DNA from: Anaerolineae bacterium
GTDB taxonomy: Bacteria > Chloroflexota > Anaerolineae > Promineifilales > Promineifilaceae
Assembly (NCBI GenBank): GCA_015486215.1
Contig: WFSA01000009.1
Location: forward strand, 1-13,947
DNA length: 13,947 nucleotides
Direction: 5' to 3'
Part shown: positions 2 through 13,947 of the stretch, piece by piece
Layout of the letters: each line of letters begins with the position of its first letter
Numbering within the stretch: the first letter of the stretch is position 1
Made by a program: the position numbers and the translations under genes
Notes under the pieces: model-generated
Databases searched by the model: none
What the model was told of the DNA's origin: nothing
Seen by the model: the letters and a program-made list of their open reading frames with translations, nothing else

Positions 2-1339
2 ATCGTCGATGAGTACAGGATGGAATTGCCCGCCGACGGCGGCTACCAGATCGAAATCGGCCTCTATTTGGCGGAAACAGGGCAGCGGCTGCAAGTTATG
101 CAGGGCGGACAGGCGACGGATCTGATTTTGATTGAGAAAACTATGGTGGAAACGGCCGTTGCCACAACAACAAGCACCCCTTCCACGCATACGCTCTCCC
201 TGCCACTCATCTTGAATATGCCGACGGTCACGCCATCTCCCACCCCGTTACCGACCGTCACCCCGCTGCCGACCGCCACTCCCAAGCCCGCCTTTCCCGT
301 TTATGAGGGTGCGCCGCTCGATTACGGGCAGATGGGGATACAGATGCACATTCAGCAGACATCGCTGCCTCCTCTTTTTGATCATATCCGCCGCTTGGGC
401 GTTGGATGGGTGAAGACGCAAGTGTCATGGAAATTGTATCAGCCGTATGCCGATCAATACGCAGAGGAACGATTTGCCGAATTGGATGAATTTGTCCGTC
501 TGGCAGAGGAAGCGGGCGTAAACGTGATGCTGGGGGTCTCGAAAGCTCCTGAATGGAGCCGCCCGACAACAGAAATGGATGGTGCGCCGACGGATTACGC
601 GCTATTTAGCGACTTTATGGGGGTGTTGGCGACGCGCTATCAAGGGCGGGTGGCGGCGTATGAGCTATGGAATGAGGCGAATTTGCAACGGGAATGGAAT
701 GGTGCGCCGTTGGGCGGAGATGAAGCGGCACGATTGATGCGGGCGGGGGCGACGGCCGTTCGCCAGGCGGATCCATCGGCACTGCTTATCAGTGGTGCAC
801 CGGCGGTGACGGGGATCAATGATGGGGTGACGGCCGTTGACGACCGCGTGTTCATGCGCCAGCTATTAAACGCAGGCACAGCCACTTTTGTAGACGGAAT
901 CGGCGTGCATCCTTACGGCTGGGCAAACCCACCTGATACAGAAGTCGGCACGCCCTCGCCCGCCACCAGCCATAATAATCATCCCAGCTTTTTCTTCCGC
1001 CAAACGCTGGATGAGTACGCCGCTCTGCTGAATGAATTCGACACGCCGCGCCCGCTCTGGCCGACAGAGTTCGGCTGGGCGACGTTTGACGGTTTAAACG
1101 CGGAGCCGCCCGCAGGGGTGGAGTATATGAATCAGGTGGACGAGTGGCAGCAGGCGGTTTATACGATGCGGGCGTTTGAGATGGGGCAGGAACGGCCGTT
1201 CGTCGCGCCGATGATCTTATGGAATTTGAATTTTGGCGCATATTTAGGGACGGAGTATGCTGAAGCGGGATATGGATTGCTGCGCGGAAATGGATCGGAG
1301 CGGCCAGTTTATTTGACGATTGAAGATAGCAAACCGTAA
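2..1339 (+). CDS. Clan GH-A (GH5-like) glycoside hydrolase, 5'-truncated by the window edge. An upstream domain is followed by a Pro/Thr-rich linker (aa ~45-90) and then a TIM-barrel catalytic domain.
   Basis: The ORF is open from position 2 with no in-frame stop, so the gene continues upstream of the window. It contains LWNEANL, an NE(P)-type acid/base motif, and PTEFGWA, a TE.G nucleophile motif; both are typical of GH5/clan GH-A. PTVTPSPTPLPTVTPLPTATPKP is a typical inter-domain PT linker. The stop codon is at 1337-1339. Confidence 0.7.
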   Translation: MVDEYRMELPADGGYQIEIGLYLAETGQRLQVMQGGQATDLILIEKTMVETAVATTTSTPSTHTLSLPLILNMPTVTPSPTPLPTVTPLPTATPKPAFPVYEGAPLDYGQMGIQMHIQQTSLPPLFDHIRRLGVGWVKTQVSWKLYQPYADQYAEERFAELDEFVRLAEEAGVNVMLGVSKAPEWSRPTTEMDGAPTDYALFSDFMGVLATRYQGRVAAYELWNEANLQREWNGAPLGGDEAARLMRAGATAVRQADPSALLISGAPAVTGINDGVTAVDDRVFMRQLLNAGTATFVDGIGVHPYGWANPPDTEVGTPSPATSHNNHPSFFFRQTLDEYAALLNEFDTPRPLWPTEFGWATFDGLNAEPPAGVEYMNQVDEWQQAVYTMRAFEMGQERPFVAPMILWNLNFGAYLGTEYAEAGYGLLRGNGSERPVYLTIEDSKP

Positions 1340-1647
1340 GGCGGCTCTTGGTGATAAATCTGTCGCGGTGTCGGTAACACCCCTTACAGACAAGTTGATA
1401 GAACTGTGGGAGTCTTGATGATGGGAATGATAGCATGGTTCAAATTAGGGTGAATCATCTTTGCCTTTATTGCGCGATTGGGCGACCATAAAGGAATAAA
1501 TTATAGGGGCGCGGCCTTATGCCCGCCCCCAAAGTATAAAGATCATCTTGCGTAAAATGAGCCATGTCGAATTTAGTATGGAAGCATAACGCGGATGGCT
1601 TCGCACGCGGATTTAGCGGATAAACGCGGATTTCCTGCTTTGATCCA

Positions 1648-1864
1648 CACTTTATTTTACACGAGTATCATGTAACTTCTCAATATTTCGGGATGACTAC
1701 AACGGATGAAAGAAATAAACGGATAGAGCAGTCGAGAAAACATCCGTTCATTTTCATGATCCGCTGTAGTCATACTAAAAACAAAATAATGTCCCCGCTT
1801 TTTTGAGAAGATACAGTATCATTAGGAAAATTTGTCAAGTCTCCCCAGAATACTAAGGGAAGGT
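1648..1864 (+). mobile_element. Composite MITE-like locus (copy A). A 5'-truncated type-1 element is interrupted by a nested 143-bp type-2 element. It consists of type-1 spacer/right half 1648..1671 + 1815..1864, with the type-2 element at 1672..1814.
   Basis: 1648-1671 (CACTTTATTTTACACGAGTATCAT) and 1815-1858 (AGTATCATTAGGAAAATTTGTCAAGTCTCCCCAGAATACTAAGG) together reconstitute the spacer and right half of the 112-bp element seen intact at 3871..3982 and 8468..8579. The intervening 1672..1814 has its own TIRs, GTAACTTCTCAATA ... TTTTTTGAGAAGATAC. It is flanked by a direct duplication AGTATCAT at 1664-1671 and 1815-1822. Confidence 0.65.
1672..1814 (+). mobile_element. Type-2 MITE-like element (143 bp) nested inside copy A, with an 8-bp target-site duplication AGTATCAT.
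   Basis: The TIR GTAaCTTCTCAATA at 1672-1685 matches the reverse complement of TATTGAGAAGATAC-like end ...TTTTTTGAGAAGATAC at 1799-1814. This is the same TIR as the type-1 element. The flanking 8-bp direct repeats sit at 1664-1671 and 1815-1822. A homologous segment (TAATACTTCGGGGTGAGTACAAC...CCCCAGTTTTTTGAGAAGATAC) occurs at 13594..13709. Confidence 0.6.
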
Positions 1865-1886
1865 TCGTTTTTAACTTTGGACTTTC

Positions 1887-1919
1887 AGGTGACAGGCACT
1901 TGGCAAGTGCCTGTCACCT
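1887..1919. repeat. Perfect 33-bp palindrome (15-bp arms, 3-nt centre GGC): AGGTGACAGGCACTT-GGC-AAGTGCCTGTCACCT. This is copy 1 of 2.
   Basis: Arms 1887-1901 and 1905-1919 are exact reverse complements. The second copy at 4027..4059 is identical except that the centre is GCG. Both are preceded by TTTC and followed by TTG, and both lie between a MITE copy and the start of a + strand gene. Confidence 0.8.
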
Positions 1920-1927
1920 TGGCCACA

Positions 1928-1957
1928 GTTATTTACGAGTTTTCCCTAAGAAGATAC
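1928..1957 (+). mobile_element. Internally deleted relic of the type-1 MITE, keeping a spacer fragment plus a solo right TIR.
   Basis: TATTTACGAGT ... TAAGAAGATAC resembles TATTTTACACGAGTA ... TGAGAAGATAC of the intact element. This is weak, eye-read similarity. Confidence 0.3.
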
Positions 1958-1967
1958 GATTCGATAT

Positions 1968-2300
1968 ATGAGCAAAGATAACGATACGCACCAGCATGAT
2001 GCAGAAAAAATAACACCCTTCCTCGCCCCTGAAAATATGGAGTATGTGATTTGCCCTGAATGTTACGGCAAAATGGCGAAGGATGCGCTCGTCTGCCCTC
2101 ATTGCGGCGGCACTCTCTCTGATGGCGTTCCTCATGATGATGCGCCAAAAAACAAGATGATCCATTATGTATGGATGGCTTTGATCGGCTTGGGGGCAAT
2201 TGTCATTATCGCGGGGCTTCTTATCGGTTTTGCTGGGCCGAGCATGATTATCGGCGGAATTTTGTTGTTAGCGGCATCGCTCACGAAACGGTTCGCTTGA
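1968..2300 (+). CDS. Small membrane protein (110 aa) with an N-terminal zinc ribbon (CPECYG...CPHCGG) and two C-terminal transmembrane helices.
   Basis: The ORF has two CxxC pairs 17 residues apart, followed by the hydrophobic stretches MIHYVWMALIGLGAIVIIAGLLIGF and MIIGGILLLAASL. It lies downstream of the MITE plus palindrome leader. I see no obvious SD, so the start assignment is tentative. Confidence 0.55.
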   Translation: MSKDNDTHQHDAEKITPFLAPENMEYVICPECYGKMAKDALVCPHCGGTLSDGVPHDDAPKNKMIHYVWMALIGLGAIVIIAGLLIGFAGPSMIIGGILLLAASLTKRFA

Positions 2301-2331
2301 TAAAAGCAAGTATTGCTCGCTATGCGTGCAT

Positions 2332-2391
2332 AAAAAACGGCCGTTTTTACTTCTCAGCCAAGATAGCATTGGGCGACCCAGCGGGTCGCCC
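2332..2391. terminator. Two palindromes in the gap between the convergent genes 1968..2300(+) and 2415..3851(-). They are AAAAAACGGCCGTTTTT (2332-2348) and a GC-rich hairpin GGGCGACCC-AGC-GGGTCGCCC (2371-2391). Together they are a candidate bidirectional terminator.
   Basis: The 9-bp GC stem with a 3-nt loop lies 20 nt past the minus-strand gene stop. The A6-CGGCCG-T5 palindrome gives a U-tail on either strand. Neither is a textbook stem plus U-tract on its own. Confidence 0.35.
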
Positions 2392-2414
2392 CTACGGGGG
2401 GGGAATATGTCCAT

Positions 2415-3851
2415 TTATTTAACGATAATGGGCAGATAGACCTCTCTTGCTTCTATGAAAAAGTGAGCCGGGCGGCTCCACGCGCCGGAGATCGTGTCAG
2501 ATTTGGCACGAATCCACCACGCGTACTCCCCTTTTGGCAGAGCGGTGGAGACGGTGTAGGAGCAGTTCTGGGTTGCGTTTTCGCAATGGGCGGCAACGGC
2601 CGTTACTTCACTTTGCCCGTAATCGTGTCCCCAATTGTACGTGCCATCGGAATTGACGGCGTATAGTTGGAATTCGTATTGAACGGCCGTTGTGATCGCC
2701 TCCCATGTCACGGCAAACGAGTCGCCATCCTGGGAAATATGCTTGCTGGGCGTAATCAACACCGAAGCGGGAAGCTCATTATCGTAATCGTCACAATGAT
2801 CTTTACGAGGATTGCCGCCTATATCGCAAGGGTAATCGGATGATTGGCCGGGGATAGGGCGAGGGTCATCAGTGGAAATGAGATCGTTTAATGCTCCCAT
2901 CTCGATCTGCTGGTCGCTGCCATCGCCTAAAGCGATGAGTCTGCCGCTTTCGCTGCCGTTAAATGTGTAATCAGCCAACGCATCAATCAAACGGAAAACG
3001 CCGTAATCATCCATAGCATCGAATGTACCATACCCGCCGTTACCAGTGGCAATCACTCTATGATCGGCGGCGTAATCATACCCGTTCGCGCTGCTGGGGC
3101 GCAGGATGACATACTCTTTTGCGGTATCGGCGATCGTGCCTACGCTCTCAAATTGGTCAATATAGGTGCGATAGTCGGTGCCACAATCATTTTCATAGGT
3201 TTGTACGATCATTTTGACATCGGATGGGTAATCGGCCAGCATCACATCGGTGCTGTCAAAATCGATCCATGGAGCCGAAAAGAAGAGGAACGCATTTTCG
3301 CCGTCTGTGCCGCCAAATCCATACTCCCGTATCATCGTATAGCTGACTGAGGTGAGCAGCCCGCCGCCAGAGGAGTGTCCGATCAGGCCGAATTTATTTT
3401 TATCAATGCGTGTTGGATAGAGGTCGGCCGTCCGCGTGAACACATTGGCAAGCTGCGAGCCAATGGTGGCGGTATTTGTGGTGTATTCGTCACAAACGGC
3501 CGTGTACCCCTTGCTGACAAGAAAGTAGAGAAGCTCATCATAAGAAGCACAAGGCATGTTCCAGCCGACAGCAAAGAATAGTACCGGCGCAGGTGACATT
3601 TGGTCACTGGGATAGTAGATGGTGACAGTATTGCTATCACCATCAACATCCATCGAGAAGGTGCTGGTCATGGTATCATGGCTGCCCCAACTGCCATACC
3701 CTGCGGCAATCGGCGCGATTGGCCCCTGATGGGGCTGCCTCAACGATATTAAGGCGAAGGTAAGTAATGTTGTCCCCATAATGAGGGGGAGGATGAGGAT
3801 AAAAATAAGTTTGGGGAAAGATTTGGAAAAAGACATTGTTATAATTTTCAT
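2415..3851 (-). CDS. Secreted or membrane-anchored alpha/beta-hydrolase. It is a GxSxG serine esterase/lipase resembling the PETase, chlorophyllase and dienelactone-hydrolase families, with a C-terminal FN3-like beta-sandwich domain.
   Basis: The N-terminal hydrophobic signal/anchor is KLIFILILPLIMGTTLLTFALISL. The nucleophile elbow is GLIGHSSGGG. The C-terminal ~100 aa (FAVTWEAITTAVQYEFQLYAVNSDGTYNWG...YTVSTALPKGEYAWWIRAKSD) resembles a fibronectin-III-type domain. The 478-aa ORF has no competing frame. Confidence 0.75.
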   Translation of the reverse strand: MKIITMSFSKSFPKLIFILILPLIMGTTLLTFALISLRQPHQGPIAPIAAGYGSWGSHDTMTSTFSMDVDGDSNTVTIYYPSDQMSPAPVLFFAVGWNMPCASYDELLYFLVSKGYTAVCDEYTTNTATIGSQLANVFTRTADLYPTRIDKNKFGLIGHSSGGGLLTSVSYTMIREYGFGGTDGENAFLFFSAPWIDFDSTDVMLADYPSDVKMIVQTYENDCGTDYRTYIDQFESVGTIADTAKEYVILRPSSANGYDYAADHRVIATGNGGYGTFDAMDDYGVFRLIDALADYTFNGSESGRLIALGDGSDQQIEMGALNDLISTDDPRPIPGQSSDYPCDIGGNPRKDHCDDYDNELPASVLITPSKHISQDGDSFAVTWEAITTAVQYEFQLYAVNSDGTYNWGHDYGQSEVTAVAAHCENATQNCSYTVSTALPKGEYAWWIRAKSDTISGAWSRPAHFFIEAREVYLPIIVK

Positions 3852-3870
3852 AGGATATTTAGTATCTTCT

Positions 3871-3982
3871 GTATCTTCTCAATAAATCGTGGACAAGACT
3901 TGACAAATTTCATCAGCACTTTATTTTACATGAGTACCATTAAGAAAATTTGTCAAGTCTCCCCCGAATACTGAGAAGATAC
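3871..3982 (+). mobile_element. Intact 112-bp type-1 MITE-like element (copy B) in the divergent promoter region between the hydrolase gene (-) and the sensor kinase gene (+).
   Basis: The TIR GTATCTTCTCAATA at 3871-3884 pairs with TATTCGG...TACTGAGAAGATAC ending at 3982. The internal 14-bp inverted repeat is GACTTGACAAATTT (3897-3910) and AAATTTGTCAAGTC (3946-3959), separated by a 35-bp spacer. A tandem partial duplicate GTATCTTCT sits immediately 5' at 3862-3870. It is the same element as 8468..8579 and 13503..13596. Confidence 0.75.
3900..3927 (+). promoter_or_regulatory. Sigma70-like promoter module inside MITE copy B. It is TTGACA-N16-TATTTT and reads toward the sensor kinase gene.
   Basis: A perfect -35 TTGACA at 3900-3905 is followed by a 16-nt spacer and TATTTT at 3922-3927, which keeps the conserved T1, A2 and T6 positions. 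The same module is present in copies C and D. In every copy it points at the adjacent gene. Confidence 0.35.
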
Positions 3983-4026
3983 CCTAATTTCGATAAAATA
4001 GATCAAATAAAGCTACAGGGGTTTTC

Positions 4027-4059
4027 AGGTGACAGGCACTTGCGAAGTGCCTGTCACCT
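4027..4059. repeat. Perfect 33-bp palindrome, copy 2 (centre GCG): AGGTGACAGGCACTT-GCG-AAGTGCCTGTCACCT.
   Basis: Arms 4027-4041 and 4045-4059 are exact reverse complements. Apart from the 3-nt centre it is identical to 1887..1919. It lies 45 bp downstream of MITE copy B and ~57 bp upstream of the kinase start codon. Confidence 0.8.
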
Positions 4060-4080
4060 TGAATTATTCGTATACCCCCC

Positions 4081-4116: not shown

Positions 4117-6767
4117 TGATGCCCGCCCCCTATTTGAGCTATATTGATTTCAACCCCTACACATTCAACGCTGTCTCCCTATTTATCATCGGCTCACTCA
4201 GCGTTATCTATCTGCTGCGCCTCCAAAAGAAAACCGCCGCCTCGTGGTTCCTCATCACCAGCTTAGCCAGCTTCACGGCGGGCGTGATAGTCATGTTCTT
4301 CAGCGCCATCATCCTTTGGGGCGGTGTTTTGGATCTGTTCACGGACACCTTTGCCACCATCAGCATGGCCGCTCTGATCGGCTTTAACTACCATTATCCA
4401 CAACAAGTTACCTCCCGCGAGGCTGGTTTCGCACGTTTTTTTGCCGTCAGCATTAGCTTAACGGCCGTTATCATCAGCAGTTGGTATACGTGGCAAATTT
4501 ACAGAGTACATGCGTTTACAACGGCCGTTTCCCCCCTATTTTGGTTCCTGAATCCACTCATGTTTCTGGCCGCCCTGCTCGTCTCCATCCGCCGCGTCAT
4601 CATTATCGAACAACAAAAAACGGCAGCGGCAGGCTGGCATCATGCGTGGCTCGCCTTCTATCGGCCATCCCATCGTCAGGCGCGTTTATTGCGTAATTTC
4701 TCGTTAGCCTTATCGTTGGGATTGATACAAGGCATCGCCACTGGATTGAGCAGGACTGGACATATCTCGTCCCTGACGGCCGTTTACGCCATCAATCTCT
4801 CCCTGCTGCTGATGGTGGTTACCATCGTCTACGCCTCCTTTGAACTGACACAACAGCAGCCCGGTCTGATCATCCGTTTATTAGGACTTTCCCTGACGAC
4901 CTTATTACTGATTTTGGGCATTTTGGGCATATTTATGGTCAGTACCGCCATTGATTGGGTAAACATGCAAAACATCGCCTACACGAAAGTTGTGCAAAAA
5001 GTGGTTCGCGCTGACGAAACGGCCGCCTTGCCCGATGAAGTCGCCTACGTCGTCGCGTGGCCTAACGCGAAGACGGCGCAGTTGCTTTATGACAAACAGG
5101 GCACAATGGATATGCCATCCCTGATCGCCGAACAACAGCAAATAACGGCGAGAACGCTACCGCCCGCCGTCTGGATATCATTCATCCAGCCGCTCCTCCA
5201 CGCAGAAAACAGCACAACGGCCGTAAAATTCCGTTACGGATCAAACCCGCCCGGCTCTTGGCACCAATACGCCGCCTACACCTTTCGCCACGCTGGGATG
5301 GAGTACGAAGTCGGCTTCAAGTTGGCTGAGATGCGCCGCTTCCCCCGCGCCGTCAGCGTGGTTATGATTTGGGCGGTGATGTGCAGCACTCTCTTCATTC
5401 TCATCATTTTTCCGCTTTTTTTTAACGCTGATTTGATACGGCCATTAAACCGTTTGCTCGCTGGCGTGCAACAGGCGGATGACGGCGATCTAAACATCGC
5501 CATCCCTGTGGTACATGAAGATGAAGTCGGCTTTTTAACGGCCGCTTTCAACAAAATGGCCGCCTCATTACAAGATGAACTGACACAGCGACAACGCGCC
5601 CAAACAGAGTTACGCCATCTTGCCGATTCATTGGAGCGGCGCGTTGCCGCCCGTACCTACGAGTTGAGCGCATTATATGATGTTACCAAAGCGGCCAGCC
5701 AAGCACAAGATTTTCCCGCCTTGCTAACCGCCTCCCTCAACAGTGCCATCCGCGCCCTCAGCAGCGACGCTGGGTTTATTATTCTGACAGATGAAGAAGG
5801 GGTATCGCCGCACGCCACCTACCATCTAGCCACCCATCAAGGGATCGGCGATTGGCTGCCCCTTATTCAAAAAACGATTACCAACGGCGACTTTCTAGAA
5901 ATCATCAACCAACAAGACAAAGAACCCGTCCTCATCGCCAATACGTCCGCAGACCTACGTGCCCCGCATTTCATGCAGCTTATGCCGACGACGCTCCTCA
6001 TCGCGCCGTTATCGGCTGGAGAGCAGTTGTCGGGAGTGCTGATCGTCTACCGTGCTTTAGGACAAAGTTATAGCTTAAATGAGATTGCGCTGCTCATCTC
6101 AATCTCTGGACAACTGTCCATCGCCGCGCAAACAGACCGTCTGCGCCAACGCACCATCGTTTTGGAAGAGCGGCAGCGGCTCGCCCGCGACCTGCATGAT
6201 TCTGTCATCCAATCGCTTTATGGGCTGGCAACATTGACTGAAGTGGGAAAAATGCACGCCGCCGACGGAAATCTGGAGCCGATTGTGCCTATGTTCGCCA
6301 AAATCAGTAAGGCAGCACGGCAAGCGATTCGGGAAATGCGGCTGTTTATCCATCAATTGCGCCCGATGATTTTGGAACAGGAAGGGTTAGCCGACGCGCT
6401 GGAACTGCGGCTAACGGCCGTCGAAGGGCGTTCAGATGTGCAAGTGCGCCTGCAAGCCGATCCCGACCTGCGCCTGCCGCTGCCACTGGAAACCGCGCTC
6501 TATCAAATCGCGCAGGAAGCCCTCAACAACATTTTGCGTCACGCCCACGCGGAAACGATCATTATCACGCTGCACGGGCAAAACGGCCGTTTCATCCTAG
6601 AAATCCAAGACGACGGGCGCGGATTCGACCCGAATAAGGTTGACAACGGCCGTTTAGGGTTGAACAATATGCGGGCACGGGCGAAAGAGATTGGAGCTGA
6701 GTTTGCCATCACCTCCGCGCTCGGCATCGGAACCAAGATAAATATTGTGGTACATTATGACCCATAA
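4116..6767 (+). CDS. Sensor histidine kinase of the NarL-partner (HisKA_3) class. The N-terminal region has ~10 transmembrane helices and a ~130-aa extracytoplasmic loop, followed by HAMP, coiled-coil, GAF, HisKA_3 and HATPase_c domains.
   Basis: The H-box is ERQRLARDLHDSVIQSLYGL (HisKA_3 type). HAMP-like RPLNRLLAGVQQADDGDLNIAIP...GFLTAAFNKMAASLQDEL is present. A GAF-like segment (ALYDVTKAAS...GVLIVYRALGQ) follows. The ATPase has the N box QIAQEALNNILRHA and the G boxes DDGRGFD and GLGLNNMRARA. I prefer ATG 4116/4119 over the listed 4029, which lies inside the 33-bp palindrome. The stop codon at 6765-6767 overlaps the downstream regulator start. Confidence 0.85.
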   Translation: MMPAPYLSYIDFNPYTFNAVSLFIIGSLSVIYLLRLQKKTAASWFLITSLASFTAGVIVMFFSAIILWGGVLDLFTDTFATISMAALIGFNYHYPQQVTSREAGFARFFAVSISLTAVIISSWYTWQIYRVHAFTTAVSPLFWFLNPLMFLAALLVSIRRVIIIEQQKTAAAGWHHAWLAFYRPSHRQARLLRNFSLALSLGLIQGIATGLSRTGHISSLTAVYAINLSLLLMVVTIVYASFELTQQQPGLIIRLLGLSLTTLLLILGILGIFMVSTAIDWVNMQNIAYTKVVQKVVRADETAALPDEVAYVVAWPNAKTAQLLYDKQGTMDMPSLIAEQQQITARTLPPAVWISFIQPLLHAENSTTAVKFRYGSNPPGSWHQYAAYTFRHAGMEYEVGFKLAEMRRFPRAVSVVMIWAVMCSTLFILIIFPLFFNADLIRPLNRLLAGVQQADDGDLNIAIPVVHEDEVGFLTAAFNKMAASLQDELTQRQRAQTELRHLADSLERRVAARTYELSALYDVTKAASQAQDFPALLTASLNSAIRALSSDAGFIILTDEEGVSPHATYHLATHQGIGDWLPLIQKTITNGDFLEIINQQDKEPVLIANTSADLRAPHFMQLMPTTLLIAPLSAGEQLSGVLIVYRALGQSYSLNEIALLISISGQLSIAAQTDRLRQRTIVLEERQRLARDLHDSVIQSLYGLATLTEVGKMHAADGNLEPIVPMFAKISKAARQAIREMRLFIHQLRPMILEQEGLADALELRLTAVEGRSDVQVRLQADPDLRLPLPLETALYQIAQEALNNILRHAHAETIIITLHGQNGRFILEIQDDGRGFDPNKVDNGRLGLNNMRARAKEIGAEFAITSALGIGTKINIVVHYDP

Positions 6768-7434
6768 AACAGTCCCCTCCCCCTCCCCCACGCTGCGTAT
6801 TTTAATCGCTGACGACCACGCCATCGTCCGCGAAGGGCTGGAAGCGGTGATCGCCACCCAGCCAGATATGGCATTGGTGGGAACGGCCGTAAACGGAGTA
6901 GAAGCCGTCTCTCTAGCCGCACAGCTAAATCCCGACATGATCCTGATGGATTTGATGATGCCCCAGTTGGACGGATTAGCCGCTATTCAACAAATAACAA
7001 CCGCCAATCCAGCCGCCCGCATCCTCGTTCTCACCAGCTTCGCCGACGATGAACGGCTCTTTCCGGCCATCAAAGCGGGCGCGATGGGGTATCTGCTCAA
7101 AGACACCCTGCCCGCCGACCTGCTGCAAGCGATCCGCAATGTCGCTCAGGGAGAAACGTCCCTGCACCCGACCATCGCCCGCCGCATAATTCAAGAAATC
7201 CAACAGCCAGCCGCAAAAACGGCCGTTCCCGACCCCCTGACCGCCCGCGAAATGGAAACACTGCGCCTCATCGCTCGCGGCCTCACCAATAGGGAAATCG
7301 CCGCCGCGCTCACCATTCACCCCAAAACCGTCGCCAAATACGTCAGCACCATCCTGCAAAAACGGCACTTAGCCAACCGCACCCAAGCCGCCCTCTACGC
7401 ACTACGCGAAGGATTAGCCAGTTTAGACGAGTAA
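6757..7434 (+). CDS. NarL/FixJ-family response regulator with a REC receiver domain and a LuxR-type HTH.
   Basis: RILIADDHAIVREGL...MILMDLMMPQLDGL has the acidic pair and the phospho-acceptor Asp. LTAREMETLRLIARGLTNREIAAALTIHPKTVAKYVSTILQK is a LuxR/GerE HTH. ATG 6757 (MTHKTV...) overlaps the kinase stop, suggesting translational coupling. The alternative in-frame ATG 6745 gives MWYIMTHK. Confidence 0.85.
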   Translation: MTHKTVPSPSPTLRILIADDHAIVREGLEAVIATQPDMALVGTAVNGVEAVSLAAQLNPDMILMDLMMPQLDGLAAIQQITTANPAARILVLTSFADDERLFPAIKAGAMGYLLKDTLPADLLQAIRNVAQGETSLHPTIARRIIQEIQQPAAKTAVPDPLTAREMETLRLIARGLTNREIAAALTIHPKTVAKYVSTILQKRHLANRTQAALYALREGLASLDE

Positions 7435-7511
7435 TACACCGCTGCATACTATTTTCCTGATGGGATCAAAAGGTCAATTTCTTGAAGAAGTTGCCCTTTT
7501 TGGCGTGAGAA

Positions 7512-7553
7512 CTGGGTATAAATACCCACTCCAAAAGGCATCATTCTCCCCTA
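7512..7553 (+). promoter_or_regulatory. Conserved ~42-bp motif containing the palindrome GGGTAT-AA-ATACCC (7514-7527), followed by CACTCCAAAA...CATTCTCCCCT. This is copy 1 of 2.
   Basis: The second copy at 10185..10226 is CTGGGTAAAAATACCCACTCAAAA...TCATTCTCCCCTGTC. The palindromic core is conserved as 5-bp arms GGGTA/TACCC around 4 central A/T bases. It lies 78 bp downstream of the regulator stop and 134 bp upstream of the LamG gene ATG. Confidence 0.5.
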
Positions 7554-7653
7554 TCCATCGGGTATCGCCCCTTGTTACCATATAATGCATCCATTTATCG
7601 TACGGCAAAGTATGTGGGCAACGGCCGTAGTATCATTACAAGGAGCAGTAAGA

Positions 7654-8457
7654 ATGAAGAAAAAATGGTCAAACTCATTTTTATTATGCATATCATTAGT
7701 ACTACTCACTGGATCAAGTCTCATCAACGGGGAGTATTTCACCGCCAACATCGCCTTAGTCAACGCCAATGAGTCTGCCCAGCAAGGAGCGGTTGCATAC
7801 TGGAAGTGCGACGATGGATCGGGAACCGTCGCCAGCGACAGTTCTGGCAACGACCACGATGGAACTCTGGTCAGCACGACATGGACATCCGATGTCCCTC
7901 CCACCAGTTATGACAACCCCTCTGCCCTGCAATTTGATGGAGCAGACGATTATGTATTTGTGCCGGATGCTTCCGAATTACGCATCTCAAATAACTTTAC
8001 GTTGGCATTTTGGTTCAAATCAGGTTCGACAACGCAATCAGGTAAATATCTGTTGGCTCGGAATAGTACTGCCGCCAGCGATCAAATCGCCGTCATCTAT
8101 GAATACACAGAAGATGTGATTGAATTTTACGTGCAGGGATACAGTGGAGAGAATCCACGTTCTGGATCACAACTGCCTTTGGCAGACACAGAGTGGCATC
8201 ATATAGCGTATACCTACGATGGCACAACTTGGGCTGGGTATGTAGACGGTGTGCAAAAATTTGCAGTTTCCCGATCGTTTCTCTTGCCCACAGATGCTTT
8301 GGACGGCTGGTATATAGGTGCTGCCAGCACCATCACATCAGGACGTGTAAATGGCCGTATGGATGATGTGCGTATCTACCTCCATGCGCTCTCACCCATA
8401 GAAATCCAGATACTGACTGCATCCGACGCTGTTTACCTGCCTCTTGTCCTAAAATAG
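7654..8457 (+). CDS. Secreted LamG_3 / concanavalin-A-like lectin-fold protein (267 aa) with an N-terminal signal peptide.
   Basis: AAGGAG lies 8 nt upstream of ATG 7654, so I prefer this start over the listed 7585. The signal peptide is MKKKWSNSFLLCISLVLLTGSS. LamG_3 hallmarks are ALQFDGADDYVFVP, FTLAFWFK, WHHIAYTYDGTTWAGYVDG and MDDVRIYLHALSPIEI. Confidence 0.75.
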   Translation: MKKKWSNSFLLCISLVLLTGSSLINGEYFTANIALVNANESAQQGAVAYWKCDDGSGTVASDSSGNDHDGTLVSTTWTSDVPPTSYDNPSALQFDGADDYVFVPDASELRISNNFTLAFWFKSGSTTQSGKYLLARNSTAASDQIAVIYEYTEDVIEFYVQGYSGENPRSGSQLPLADTEWHHIAYTYDGTTWAGYVDGVQKFAVSRSFLLPTDALDGWYIGAASTITSGRVNGRMDDVRIYLHALSPIEIQILTASDAVYLPLVLK

Positions 8458-8467
8458 AAAATATGCC

Positions 8468-8579
8468 GTATCTTCTCAATAAATCGTGGACAAGAGTTGA
8501 CAAATTTCATCAGCACTTTATTTTACACGAGTATCATTAGGAAAATTTGTCAACTCTCCCCAGAATACTGAGAAGATAC
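8468..8579 (+). mobile_element. Intact 112-bp type-1 MITE-like element (copy C) between the LamG gene and the lipoprotein gene.
   Basis: The TIRs are GTATCTTCTCAATA (8468-8481) and TACTGAGAAGATAC (8566-8579). The internal inverted-repeat arms here are GAGTTGACAAATTT and AAATTTGTCAACTC. Relative to copies B and D this is a compensatory C>G / G>C pair. The flanks AAATATGCC (left) and AATACGCCC (right) look like a degenerate 8-bp target-site duplication. Confidence 0.75.
8497..8524 (+). promoter_or_regulatory. TTGACA-N16-TATTTT promoter module inside MITE copy C, reading toward the lipoprotein gene.
   Basis: TTGACA is at 8497-8502 and TATTTT at 8519-8524. This is the same module as in copies B and D. 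The lipoprotein ATG is 123 bp downstream and has a strong SD. Confidence 0.35.
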
Positions 8580-8646
8580 AATACGCCCATTAAAAAATTC
8601 GGGACTCGTTTCCCTCTAGCTCTAGCTATCAATAAAGGAGAAAACC

Positions 8647-10053: not shown

Positions 10054-10115
10054 AGAGCGGCAACAGGACGATTACACTCTCGTCTTTTACAGAAAATTGA
10101 GTTGATCTTGTTTTG

Positions 10116-10176
10116 AAATTGGACACTGATCACACTGATTTCACTGATTTTTATCTGTGCAATCAGTGTCCAATTT
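10116..10176. promoter_or_regulatory. 15-bp inverted repeat (AAATTGGACACTGAT / ATCAGTGTCCAATTT) enclosing three direct CACTGAT repeats at 9-bp spacing. It is iteron-like and possibly a terminator.
   Basis: The arms are at 10116-10130 and 10162-10176. CACTGAT occurs at 10124, 10133 and 10142, with a reverse-complement copy ATCAGTG at 10162-10168. It sits 63 bp after the lipoprotein stop and ~85 bp before the receiver ORF. The RNA stem would end in AAUUU/UUUUG. Confidence 0.45.
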
Positions 10177-10184
10177 TGCAAGAG

Positions 10185-10226
10185 CTGGGTAAAAATACCC
10201 ACTCAAAACCCACTCATTCTCCCCTG
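10185..10226 (+). promoter_or_regulatory. Copy 2 of the GGGTA-N4-TACCC motif (GGGTAAAAATACCC at 10187-10200), 68 bp upstream of the ATG of the receiver ORF.
   Basis: See 7512..7553. A possible -10 TATATC lies at 10240-10245. Confidence 0.5.
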
Positions 10227-10260
10227 TCAAAGAGAGGTGTATATCTGCTAATTTTGTAGT

Positions 10261-10632
10261 ATGAACACAAAACAGATCACCATCCTCATTATCGCACCAG
10301 CAGGACGTATGGCCGACACGCTTTCTGTGTTATTGAAATCCAATACTCAGATCACGCTGCTCGGCCAAATTGCCGATCCAGATGTCGGCCTGCGTCTGAT
10401 TGTTGAACGCCAGCCCGATGCTGTGATCATAGACGCAAATTTACCCGACAATGCCGTTTGGCCGCTTTTATCACAATTAAAAACGGCCGTTCCCCACACC
10501 CGCCGCTTCGTTCTGATCCACTCATCCCAACAAAGAAAACAGGTCAAAACCACAGGTGCTGACACTATATCCGCATCTGAATGTAATGCTAAAAAATTGT
10601 TTTTAGGAATGGGAATTTTATCTTCTCAATGA
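10261..10632 (+). CDS. Atypical receiver (REC)-like single-domain protein, 123 aa. It may be a MITE-truncated response-regulator remnant or pseudo-receiver.
   Basis: ITILIIAPAGRMADTLSVLL...PDAVIIDANLPD has a REC-like fold signature and a conserved Asp at the DANLP position, but the N-terminal acidic pair (DD) is replaced by AP. The last 4 codons and the TGA (10618-10632) lie inside a decayed MITE TIR (TTATCTTCTCAATGA). I see no SD. Confidence 0.45.
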   Translation: MNTKQITILIIAPAGRMADTLSVLLKSNTQITLLGQIADPDVGLRLIVERQPDAVIIDANLPDNAVWPLLSQLKTAVPHTRRFVLIHSSQQRKQVKTTGADTISASECNAKKLFLGMGILSSQ

Positions 10633-10696
10633 AAGGGCAAAAGAGCTGATAGATTTCATCAAAGCCTCTCAATTTACACGAGTACCACAAAAAAAC
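10618..10696 (+). mobile_element. Decayed type-1 MITE relic (copy E), keeping the left TIR and part of the spacer.
   Basis: TATCTTCTCAAT...GATTTCATCA...CAATTTACACGAGTACCAC resembles GTATCTTCTCAAT...AATTTCATCA...TTATTTTACACGAGTATCAT of the intact element. The right half is missing and replaced by the 118-bp inverted-repeat element at 10697. Confidence 0.4.
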
Positions 10697-10814
10697 CTAG
10701 TTCTAGCGGATTTTGTTGCTGCCTGATTTGATGCCATTTTAAAGCAATACTCGCGTCATTTTTGGACGAAATTTACTATCAAAAACTATCAGCAACAAGA
10801 AACGCTAGAACCAG
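10697..10814. repeat. 118-bp element with ~25-bp imperfect terminal inverted repeats (CTAGTTCTAGCGGATTTTGTTGCTG / CAGCAACAAGAAACGCTAGAACCAG). It is a possible second MITE type inserted into the relic E spacer.
   Basis: The arms 10697-10721 and 10790-10814 are reverse complements at ~21 of 25 positions. The insertion point in relic E, just after CACGAGTA..CA, corresponds to the type-2 insertion point in copy A. Confidence 0.35.
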
Positions 10815-10985
10815 ATAAATTACTCCTTTATCAATACTGTTTTTGTACAGCGTACAAGGATATTATCCGCAGATTTCACAGATCGACGCAGATTAAAAAA
10901 GGTTAAAAATCTGCGCCAATCTGCGGATCGTTCTTCACCCAATTCCAAACACAGAATTGATCGGCTGGAAAACAGCCGTTCTCCT

Positions 10986-13338: not shown

Positions 13339-13502
13339 AAAAAAAACTCCTCTAGCTTACAGATCATATTCGTAGGCTTAACGAATATATTTGACTGTCA
13401 TTCCTGCCTTCGCTGAGCCCGCCCTCGTCGAGATGGGGGAATGACAAACCGTTAAGTTTACAACAATGCTTACAGATAGATGCACGAATAGAAGCCGCTT
13501 TG

Positions 13503-13709
13503 GTATCTTCTTAGTATTCTGGGGAGACTTGACAAATTTTCCTAATGATACTCGTATAAAATAAAGTGCTGATGAAATTTGTCAAGTCTTGTCCATAATA
13601 CTTCGGGGTGAGTACAACAAATCAAGAAAGGAATAAATTGCATCAGTCGAGTCAACCTGCTCTTTTCCAAATCTGCTGTACTCATGTCCCCAGTTTTTTG
13701 AGAAGATAC
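13503..13709 (-). mobile_element. Chimeric MITE-like element (copy D) in reverse orientation, flanked by a perfect 9-bp target-site duplication GCCGCTTTG. It is a type-1 body (13503-13596) fused to a type-2 3' portion (13597-13709).
   Basis: The left TIR is GTATCTTCTTAGTATT and the right end is TTTTTTGAGAAGATAC. The 9-bp direct repeats are at 13494-13502 and 13710-13718. The internal inverted repeat is GACTTGACAAATTT / AAATTTGTCAAGTC. The segment 13597-13709 matches the type-2 element 1690-1814 in the same way (AATACTTCGGGGTGAGTACAAC...CCCCAGTTTTTTGAGAAGATAC). Confidence 0.7.
13558..13585 (-). promoter_or_regulatory. TTGACA-N16-TATTTT promoter module of MITE copy D on the minus strand, reading toward the NfeD-like/flotillin operon.
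   Basis: On the minus strand, TTGACA is at 13585-13580 and TATTTT at 13563-13558. The predicted leader to ATG 13338 is ~210 nt and contains a 9-bp-stem hairpin (13396-13404 / 13438-13446). Confidence 0.3.
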
Positions 13710-13947
13710 GCCGCTTTGTCGTTAAGACAAAACGGCCGTTATCACGATCTCTATCCAGAGTGATATGGTTGCAGAATGGGGCTAACTGTATGCGAAGGTA
13801 CGCAGAACAGAACGGCAAAGCCGCCCAAGTCAGCAATATAGAACTCCTATTATAGGGAATACGGGGGGATGTGACAGTAACGGGTCACATCAAATAGGCA
13901 CTTTTGGTTTCATAACCAATCTATCCTCCACCGGGTCTTAGGGAAGG

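Follow-up and report, generated by a model that had tools for sequence, protein, structure and literature searches.

A 13,947-nucleotide stretch of contig WFSA01000009.1 from an Anaerolineae bacterium (assembly GCA_015486215.1; hereafter, the window) carries several copies of short palindromic repeats between its genes. We distinguished two repeat types, T1 (112 bp) and T2 (143 bp), and found that their termini are those of insertion sequences (ISs) that encode a single IS66-family transposase. Judging from sequence comparisons, we put a probability of roughly 85% on T1 and T2 being two MITE (miniature inverted-repeat transposable element) subfamilies that are probably moved in trans by an ISBst12-like transposase of the IS66 family. 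One T1 element (copy A) bears two independent nested insertions, one of which is T2, and another compound element (copy D) joins T2 and T1 in a 207-bp fusion that most likely moved as one unit. Coordinates of the features are collected in Table 1.

Two repeat types share one bipartite terminus

The repeats are short palindromes with a common terminus, GTATCTTCTCA...TGAGAAGATAC. A 16-mer, GTAWCTTCTCARWAWW, occurs nine times in the window at two or fewer mismatches, compared with 0.13 occurrences expected. The terminal inverted repeat (TIR) is ∼22–25 nt long in the window elements, and T1 and T2 have the same bipartite layout, GTATCTTCTCAA..A..GGGG (terminus GTATCTTCTCAATAA...GGGG), in which the GGGG box occupies positions 19–22. 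Every copy is intergenic, and T1, T2, and the fusion all lack an open reading frame (ORF) of their own. Single strands of T1 fold into one long hairpin, and all copies are hairpin-forming, with z-scores of −5.8 to −7.2.

Two T1 elements (copies B and C) are intact and 95% identical to each other. Target-site duplications flank copies A (8/8 positions matching), C (7/8), and D (9/9), those of copy C reading AATATGCC (8460–8467) and AATACGCC (8580–8587). Immediately upstream of copy B, at 3862–3870, nine nucleotides of its terminus are repeated directly (GTATCTTCT GTATCTTCT...), perhaps through slippage or as a leftover from an earlier element.

Copy A is a T1 element with two nested insertions

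T2 lies in the spacer of copy A with the octamer AGTATCAT on both flanks (1664–1671 and 1815–1822), an exact 8-bp duplication, and its DNA fold has an energy of −24.7 kcal/mol (z = −5.8). Beyond T2, the resumed T1 sequence is identical to copy D at 43/43 positions and to copy C at 41/43. The T1 copies that are free of inserts serve as empty sites for this insertion and for the one described next: The octamer is single-copy in the T1 sequences of C and D and is found once in B, as AGTACCAT.

The second insertion is an unrelated 89-bp MITE in the right TIR of T1. It has TIRs of its own (GG(G)AAGGTTCGTTTTTAACTTTGG and the reverse complement of GGAAAACTCGTAAATAACTGTGG, the ends reading GGAAGGTTCG.../...CGAGTTTTCC), folds at −22.9 kcal/mol (z = −7.1), and is surrounded by a duplication of CTAA (or CTAAG) at 1853–1856 and 1946–1949. 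It splits the T1 terminus as ...AATACTAA|GAAGATAC (...ACTAA|GAAGATAC), so that the true end of T1 is at 1957. Removing the 89-bp insert in silico recreates the terminus ACTAAGAAGATAC, the same as in copy D, and removing both inserts together with one copy of each duplication leaves 75 nt, of which 71 are identical to copy D and 70 to copy C. The left 37 nt of T1 (positions 1–37) are missing from copy A. The sequence-only reading of this region had recognized the 143-bp element inside T1 and its 8-bp duplication, both of which we recovered. It had placed the end of copy A near 1864, however, having overlooked the 89-bp insert.

The evidence supports T2 as an independent element nested in T1, because it has its own TIRs, is flanked by an exact duplication of the length typical of its family (see below), and leaves a restored T1 upon excision. 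Could T2 instead be T1 sequence that has expanded internally, or just a longer T1 variant, with a consensus that includes AGTATCAT? T2 is only ever seen in contact with T1, and a solo T2 was not found in relatives, as such a variant would predict. But T2 has complete TIRs of its own that match the family consensus through the GGGG box, its duplication has exactly the 8 bp of the family, and the octamer occurs once in each of B, C, and D. In copy D, the outer T2 end adjoins CAAAGCGGC rather than AGTATCAT, which places AGTATCAT outside the T2 consensus, and more than 85 elements elsewhere combine the same termini with unrelated interiors. We regard the variant explanation as very improbable, in line with the original description of T2 as a separate element.

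Two further repeats were seen around copy A. Three CGCGGAT(T) units occupy 1590–1636, directly to the left of the truncated element, where the first 37 nt of T1 would be expected; these CGCGGATT repeats do not significantly resemble any of the other repeat families, including the palindromic CGCAGATTT repeat at 10861–10925. In addition, the 33-nt G+C-rich hairpin at the center of the 89-bp insert recurs with short flanks at 4023–4061, after copy B and upstream of a histidine-kinase gene.

Copy D is a fusion of T2 and T1

Copy D spans 13503–13709, and the 9-bp sequence CAAAGCGGC is found immediately outside both of its ends. Read on the minus strand from 13709 to 13503, it consists of GTATCTTCTCAAAAAACTGGGGACAT, the T2 interior, CCCCGAAGTATT, one extra A, and T1 from position 20 to the intact right terminus. 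At the head-to-head junction of the two parts, one T2 terminus is short of ∼10 nt and one T1 terminus of 19 nt, and nearly the whole interior of both elements is retained. In a global alignment, the T2 part is ∼70% identical, with indels, to the reverse complement of the T2 of copy A and therefore appears to derive from a diverged T2 subfamily. Its main stem differs from that of copy A by two compensatory changes (GACTACAGCGGAT/ATCCGTTGTAGTC to GAGTACAGCAGAT/ATTTGTTGTACTC). The orientation of T2 relative to T1 is opposite to that in copy A, which argues that D did not derive from a nest of the A type.

The exact 9-bp duplication, flush with the outer ends of two different elements, is the reason to think that the fusion moved as a unit, as had been proposed from the sequence. 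An in-place origin would have T1 arrive first and T2 insert in or next to its terminus, followed by deletions, with the 9-bp repeat either left over from the earlier duplication of T1 or matching by chance. Only one copy of D is known, the norm for the family is 8 bp and not 9, and deletions at abutted inverted termini are plausible enough. Such a history would nonetheless require a deletion that removed exactly the T1 remnant and left the duplication flush with the T2 end, since one copy of the repeat adjoins a T2 terminus and its partner a T1 terminus. The chance of an exact 9-mer at both fixed positions is ∼4 × 10^-6, and 9-bp duplications do exist in the family: Among the matches listed, two of 93 elements (L057 and L062; L-numbers label loci and contigs from other genomes throughout) have exact ones. 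An in-place origin therefore seems quite unlikely to us.

How the fusion arose is a separate matter. The sequence-only reading had invoked recombination at the shared TIR, and this part did not hold up: An exchange there is unlikely because D keeps nearly both interiors and loses only the abutting termini. The junction looks more like a deletion of two abutted ends, or like the use of the outer ends of two neighboring elements with later decay. A more specific possibility, which we find rather doubtful, is that the transposase itself once created an abutted-ends junction, of which the present one is a decayed trace, either by synapsis of ends from two neighboring elements or by way of a circle- or dimer-type intermediate. 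If that were true, IS66-type enzymes would routinely make new MITE subfamilies by element fusion, and the D junction would be a natural footprint of an IS66 transposition pathway that is still poorly characterized.

We also considered that nest and fusion might be artifacts, with repeats having collapsed when short metagenomic reads were assembled. Assembly is indeed interrupted at these repeats, as seen in contig L172, which comes from the same strain and starts inside copy C. The same contig, deposited independently in ENA, carries copy D at 99.96% identity over 5421 bp, which disfavors an artifact for D. The junctions of A and D fall either within unique sequence or at 8-bp repeats, a length that would not confuse an assembler based on k-mers, and exact duplications are the expected trace of real insertion. 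Misassembly is thus a most improbable source of either structure.

Table 1. T1, T2, and associated features in the window
Feature	Position	Strand	Description
Copy A, left surviving part of T1	1639–1671	+	T1 positions 38–70; 30/33 identical to copy C (local alignment)
T2, 143-bp MITE nested in T1	1672–1814	+	Own TIRs GTAACTTCTCAATATTTCGGG / reverse complement of GTATCTTCTCAAAAAAGCGGGG; long internal hairpin
Copy A, T1 resumed	1815–1856	+	T1 positions 63–104; CTAA at end (1853–1856)
Third, unrelated 89-bp MITE in right TIR of T1	1857–1945	+	Central 33-nt hairpin at 1887–1919
Copy A, final 8 nt of T1 right terminus (GAAGATAC)	1950–1957	+	Pushed away by third insert
T1 copy B	3871–3982	+	Intact, 112 bp; fold z = −7.2
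T1 copy C	8468–8579	+	Intact, 112 bp; fold z = −6.3
Relic E	10618–10705	+	Old degenerate T1-like element, truncated at synteny breakpoint
Copy D, T1-derived part	13503–13595	−	T1 positions 20–112, outer terminus intact; 96% identity with copy C across 93 nt
Copy D, T2-derived part	13596–13709	−	Outer terminus GTATCTTCTCAAAAAACTGGGGACAT intact, T2 interior, inner part of other TIR (CCCCGAAGTATT)
Copy D, target-site duplication CAAAGCGGC	13494–13502 and 13710–13718	.	Exact 9 bp

The same termini bound many short elements in other genomes

We were interested in whether the terminus occurs beyond the window and therefore scanned one genome per species for pairs of termini 85–145 nt apart. At least 85 loci were recovered, nearly all in metagenome-assembled genomes (MAGs) of Chloroflexota (Anaerolineae, Thermoflexia, Caldilineaceae, and Ardenticatenales). 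Among the matches listed, the elements are 92–224 bp long, and their interiors are unrelated; only the terminal 19–26 nt are in common with T1 and T2. T1 and T2 are therefore two of many interiors found between the same ends. An 8-bp duplication is exact in 58 of the 93 listed elements and has one mismatch in 11 more, so the 8 bp of copy A and the 9 bp of copy D are both within the range of the family.

The named homologs of one protein encoded in the window come from Chloroflexi/Anaerolineae MAGs, in keeping with a Chloroflexota host. Closer to the host, L173 (GCA_054008415.1) and L174 are relatives with 91%–95% nucleotide identity, over shared genes in the case of L173. At the genomic sites of copies B and C, L173 differs by larger rearrangements, hence there is no clean empty site in that genome. 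Neither T1 nor T2 was found in the more distant relatives L175 and L176, and a scan of metagenome contigs with a T1-core pattern gave no match.

Several occurrences fell outside Chloroflexota. The same termini, often with GTTAC at one end, were observed in MAGs labeled Cellvibrionaceae, Desulfobacterales/Desulfobulbaceae, Chromatiales, and "Deltaproteobacteria" (L010, L022, L024, L037, L041, L056, L060, L062, L064, L070, L077, and L080), and the Cellvibrionaceae isolate 3300053785_73 has seven terminus-pair loci among the matches listed. The family may extend across phyla, which the ISs of Caballeronia and Nostoc described below suggest; otherwise, some of these bins are mislabeled. At L023 (560–730), a 109-bp MITE is enclosed by sequences (...TCTCAATAACTTGGGGTG | insert | TTTCGGGGTTTGGTTTATTTGAG...) that look like degraded termini of an earlier MITE from a different subfamily, an arrangement which suggests that MITE-in-MITE insertion also takes place in other Chloroflexota genomes.

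The 85 listed MITE loci themselves encode no recurrent transposase. Long TIR pairs (e.g., at L080) and recurrent ORFs were considered as a MITE-linked transposase and rejected, the ORFs being housekeeping genes, and an apparently solo TIR at L012, considered as a lone end, turned out to belong to another MITE with a degenerate end.

IS66-type insertion sequences carry the terminus of T1 and T2

Searching plasmids with the consensus terminus, we found the same sequence beside genes annotated as transposases. One such case is a 2027-bp element on plasmid pSBC1_3 of Caballeronia sp. SBC1 (L090:4001–6027), which has GTAACTTCTCAATAAC(T/C)CGGGGC at both ends, is flanked by an exact 8-bp duplication (CATCAGCT), and contains one ORF of 539 aa with the PF03050 (DDE_Tnp_IS66) domain (55.9 bits against a cutoff of 23.1). 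Cyanobacterial plasmids bear the same TIR on short elements as well as on IS66-type ISs, and a plasmid of Nostoc flagelliforme has a relative with 29% identity, a frameshift, and GTATC..CTCAATAATTCGGGG ends. Searches with the Caballeronia and Nostoc proteins returned thousands of relatives, at least 7000–8000 clusters per search, and those with names are called "IS66 family transposase." Many of these relatives stand alone on ∼2-kb contigs, in the manner of repeated ISs in assemblies.

To see the ends of such elements, we fetched 80 metagenome loci encoding relatives of the transposase. Most elements with paired ends are 1.76–2.06 kb long and bounded by GTATCnnCTCAATAA..GGGG, and in 13 of them one or both ends are exactly GTATCTTCTCAA, as in L138:816–2591, which has one ORF of 552 aa (PF03050, 38.7 bits). 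Where the flanks are genomic, exact 8-bp duplications were found (L096, L106, L111, L129, and L140). The PF03050 scores of the transposases tested were 55.9, 38.7, 49.3, and 49.4 bits, all against the same cutoff. Elements that share the TIR and encode a transposase include L090, L138, L113, and L124, all in genomes other than the host; they have one sense ORF of ∼550 aa with no accessory genes of the tnpA/tnpB kind, the single-ORF arrangement of the ISBst12 group. At L138, a nearly full-length open frame of 553 aa (824–2485, minus strand) also runs antisense to the transposase gene and is probably a codon-bias artifact of G+C-rich DNA.

The agreement between short and long elements goes beyond the sequence used to find them. 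Positions 13–22 of the MITE consensus, which the search pattern left unconstrained, correspond to those of the IS consensus, which read AATAA, then three variable bases, and then GGGG, and the termini start with 5′-GTA, as in the IS66 family. The transposases are as little as ∼30% identical to each other and yet retain the terminus. That both repeat types share one TIR and apparently one transposition machinery had been surmised from the window sequence, and the comparison bears this out: The shared machinery is the natural reading because the TIR of T1 and T2 equals that of single-ORF IS66-family ISs.

An explanation of a different kind would make the repeats a structured host repeat, similar to repetitive extragenic palindromic sequences or bacterial interspersed mosaic elements (REP/BIME) or a family of small RNA genes, spread by some other route. 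The long hairpins of all copies, the pair of compensatory changes that distinguishes the T2 stem of copy D from that of copy A, and the intergenic positions of all copies speak for it. Against it, an Rfam search at gathering and permissive thresholds returned no family and only chance matches to microRNA hairpins; 58–69 of the 93 listed copies have target duplications of fixed length; and the termini are identical to those of elements that encode a transposase. Compensation in the stem is to be expected of a palindromic MITE even when no RNA function is involved. There is, in our estimate, only a slight chance that the repeats are host sequences of this kind.

A model for the movement of T1, T2, and the fusion

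We propose that T1 and T2 are noncoding elements that form hairpins and that either derive by deletion from, or mimic, an IS66-family IS with a single ORF. In this model, a DDE transposase supplied from elsewhere in the genome would bind the ends in trans, recognizing the outer GTATCTTCTCAA, an A/T-rich stretch, and the GGGG box at positions 19–22, and would move T1, T2, and the D fusion alike. A staggered cut of 8 bp, occasionally 9 bp, at integration would produce the flanking duplications.

Copy A would have begun with the insertion of T1 into the intergenic region. T2 would then have inserted into the T1 loop region, duplicating AGTATCAT; the 89-bp MITE would have entered the right TIR of T1, duplicating CTAA; and the left end of T1 would have been lost, the order of these three later events not being fixed by the model. 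For copy D, a T2 variant and a T1 would have come to lie end to end, and their two abutting inner termini would have been largely deleted, either before or after the move. The transposase would have used the two remaining outer termini, integrating the 207-bp fusion as a unit with a 9-bp duplication.

Several observations weigh against this interpretation. The window and contigs L172–L174 contain no IS66-type transposase, so a trans-acting enzyme in this host is an assumption. T2 has been seen just twice, each time touching T1, and none of the relatives examined has a solo T2. The fusion is present as a single copy with no sign of amplification, and the flanks of copy B have no recognizable target duplication. 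Lastly, the Caballeronia transposase scored 123.9 bits on the NCBIfam equivalog model for IS66 (NF033517), below its cutoff of 180. On sequence grounds, the matching transposases appear to be a divergent branch, and that cutoff is a threshold for naming proteins rather than a definition of the IS family.

Relic E is broken at a rearrangement, not at the spacer

A degenerate T1-like element, relic E, had been described as interrupted by a 118-bp inverted-repeat element at the equivalent spacer position, hinting at an insertion hotspot at an AT-rich or bent target. We did not find this to be the case. Positions 10618–10696 align to T1 positions 1–69, and the orthologous element in L173 is full length, running uninterrupted into a recognizable T1 right half (...AAAAAATCTATCAGTTCTCTCCCCAAAAATAGGATGAT). 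The apparent end of homology at the spacer is a point of divergence between E and T1 and not an insertion point, because the L173 element continues through it. The window and L173 can be aligned further, to 10694–10705 (approximately T1 positions 80–86), beyond which both similarity and gene order stop. After the 118-bp inverted repeat, no T1 right half was detected (alignment score of 19 vs. a shuffle mean of 19.1). Relic E is thus truncated at a rearrangement breakpoint and lends no support to a hotspot.

The 118-bp element itself (10697–10814; arms CTAGTTCTAGCGGATTTTGTTGCTG / CAGCAACAAGAAACGCTAGAACCAG; fold z = −4.2) lies precisely at the point where L173 homology and synteny stop, and no second copy was found in any fetched sequence. 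A preference for the spacer also finds no echo in the wider family, in which 58 distinct exact duplications from other genomes yielded no target-site consensus and only a mild A+T bias (43.5% G+C in the duplications vs. 53.8% for the loci).

Other repeats in the window

Further repeat families populate the window. The palindrome AACGGCCGTT occurs at 14 sites in the 13.9 kb, compared with 0.02 expected, both within and between genes (e.g., 151–160, 1191–1200, 4460–4469, and 13731–13740). Six more sites are in the 8-kb contig L173 and none in L175 and L176, which are less closely related. Like HIP1, it seems to be a highly iterated palindrome, in this case one specific to a lineage. Another family has the core ...TTGGACACTGAT...ATCTGTGCAATCAGTGTCCAA... 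It was seen once in the window (10062–10181, with an inverted repeat at 10116–10176) and at least five times in L173 (including 1–244, 940–1020, 6277–6348, and 6888–7102), often where collinearity with the window breaks.

A palindromic repeat of CGCAGATT(T) units was found at 10861–10925 in the window and at 4606–4687 in L173, where it occupies the place of a Laminin_G_3 gene and T1 copy C in the window. Both genomes also have a 48-nt direct repeat, AGAACTGGGTATAAATACCCAC...TCATTCTCCCCT, upstream of two genes (7508–7555 and 10181–10228 in the window; 4468–4515 and 6353–6400 in L173), which may be a shared regulatory or promoter-region motif.

Significance and comparison with known systems

The intergenic regions of the window are a patchwork of hairpin repeats that MITEs explain, with the boundaries of copy A now corrected. 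The conserved bipartite terminus GTATCnnCTCAATAA..GGGG ties single-ORF IS66-family transposases to abundant and diverse MITEs of Chloroflexota and cyanobacteria, and it offers annotators a simple signature for masking such repeats. T1, T2, and the D fusion provide defined substrates for an IS family whose mechanism is little known. What this adds is modest: an abundant Chloroflexota and cyanobacterial MITE superfamily linked to an IS66 lineage in which conservation of the terminus is striking. The elements of the window are MITEs in the ordinary sense and follow ordinary transposon biology; nesting and fusion by themselves are expected MITE behavior and settle no open question.

In plants, nested Tourist and Stowaway insertions and MITE fusions that transpose by their outer ends are well known. 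Copies A and D resemble these as a MITE inside a MITE with its own duplication and as a two-element fusion within a single duplication, respectively. They differ in having a prokaryotic host and an IS66-type transposase, and in that one nest and one fusion are documented here.

IS5 has the TIR GGAAGGTGCG... and duplicates 4 bp of a YTAR target. The ends and target of the 89-bp insert in copy A are what we take to be similar to those of IS5-group elements, as the insert begins with GGAAGGTTCG and duplicates CTAA, a resemblance and no more. A 4-bp direct repeat is reported for IS5 and its group, and 8-bp direct repeats are reported for the IS66 members ISPpa5a and ISPpa7 (PMC3281130).

The bacterial MITEs Correia, RUP, Chunjie, and Nezha (reviewed in PMC3184786 and PMC10969869) are likewise small, intergenic elements with an A+T-rich noncoding interior, TIRs shared with ISs, direct repeats, and a stable hairpin. 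Their transposase family and TIR are different, and Chunjie is reported with a 9-bp direct repeat, compared with 8 bp here. We dropped an equation with the cyanobacterial Nezha, an example copy of which has a 10-bp direct repeat (CATTATCTAC) (PMC6042816); Nezha may or may not be related to the MITEs of the window.

A close counterpart is ISDge4 of Deinococcus geothermalis, which belongs to the ISBst12 group of IS66 and has a single ORF, the TIR GTAACTGCTCAGCA, and an 8-bp direct repeat (PMC12898284). It differs in that the window has only noncoding derivatives of 112–207 bp, and in that its transposase is 449 aa long, compared with ∼540–570 aa for the matching transposases, which score below the NCBIfam equivalog cutoff. 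In other respects, the two systems agree: The target duplication is 8 bp, the termini start with GTA(A/T)C..CTCA (GTAACTGCTCAGCA in ISDge4 vs. GTAACTTCTCAATA here), and the autonomous elements with these termini consist of one DDE_Tnp_IS66 ORF with no accessories of the tnpA/tnpB kind.

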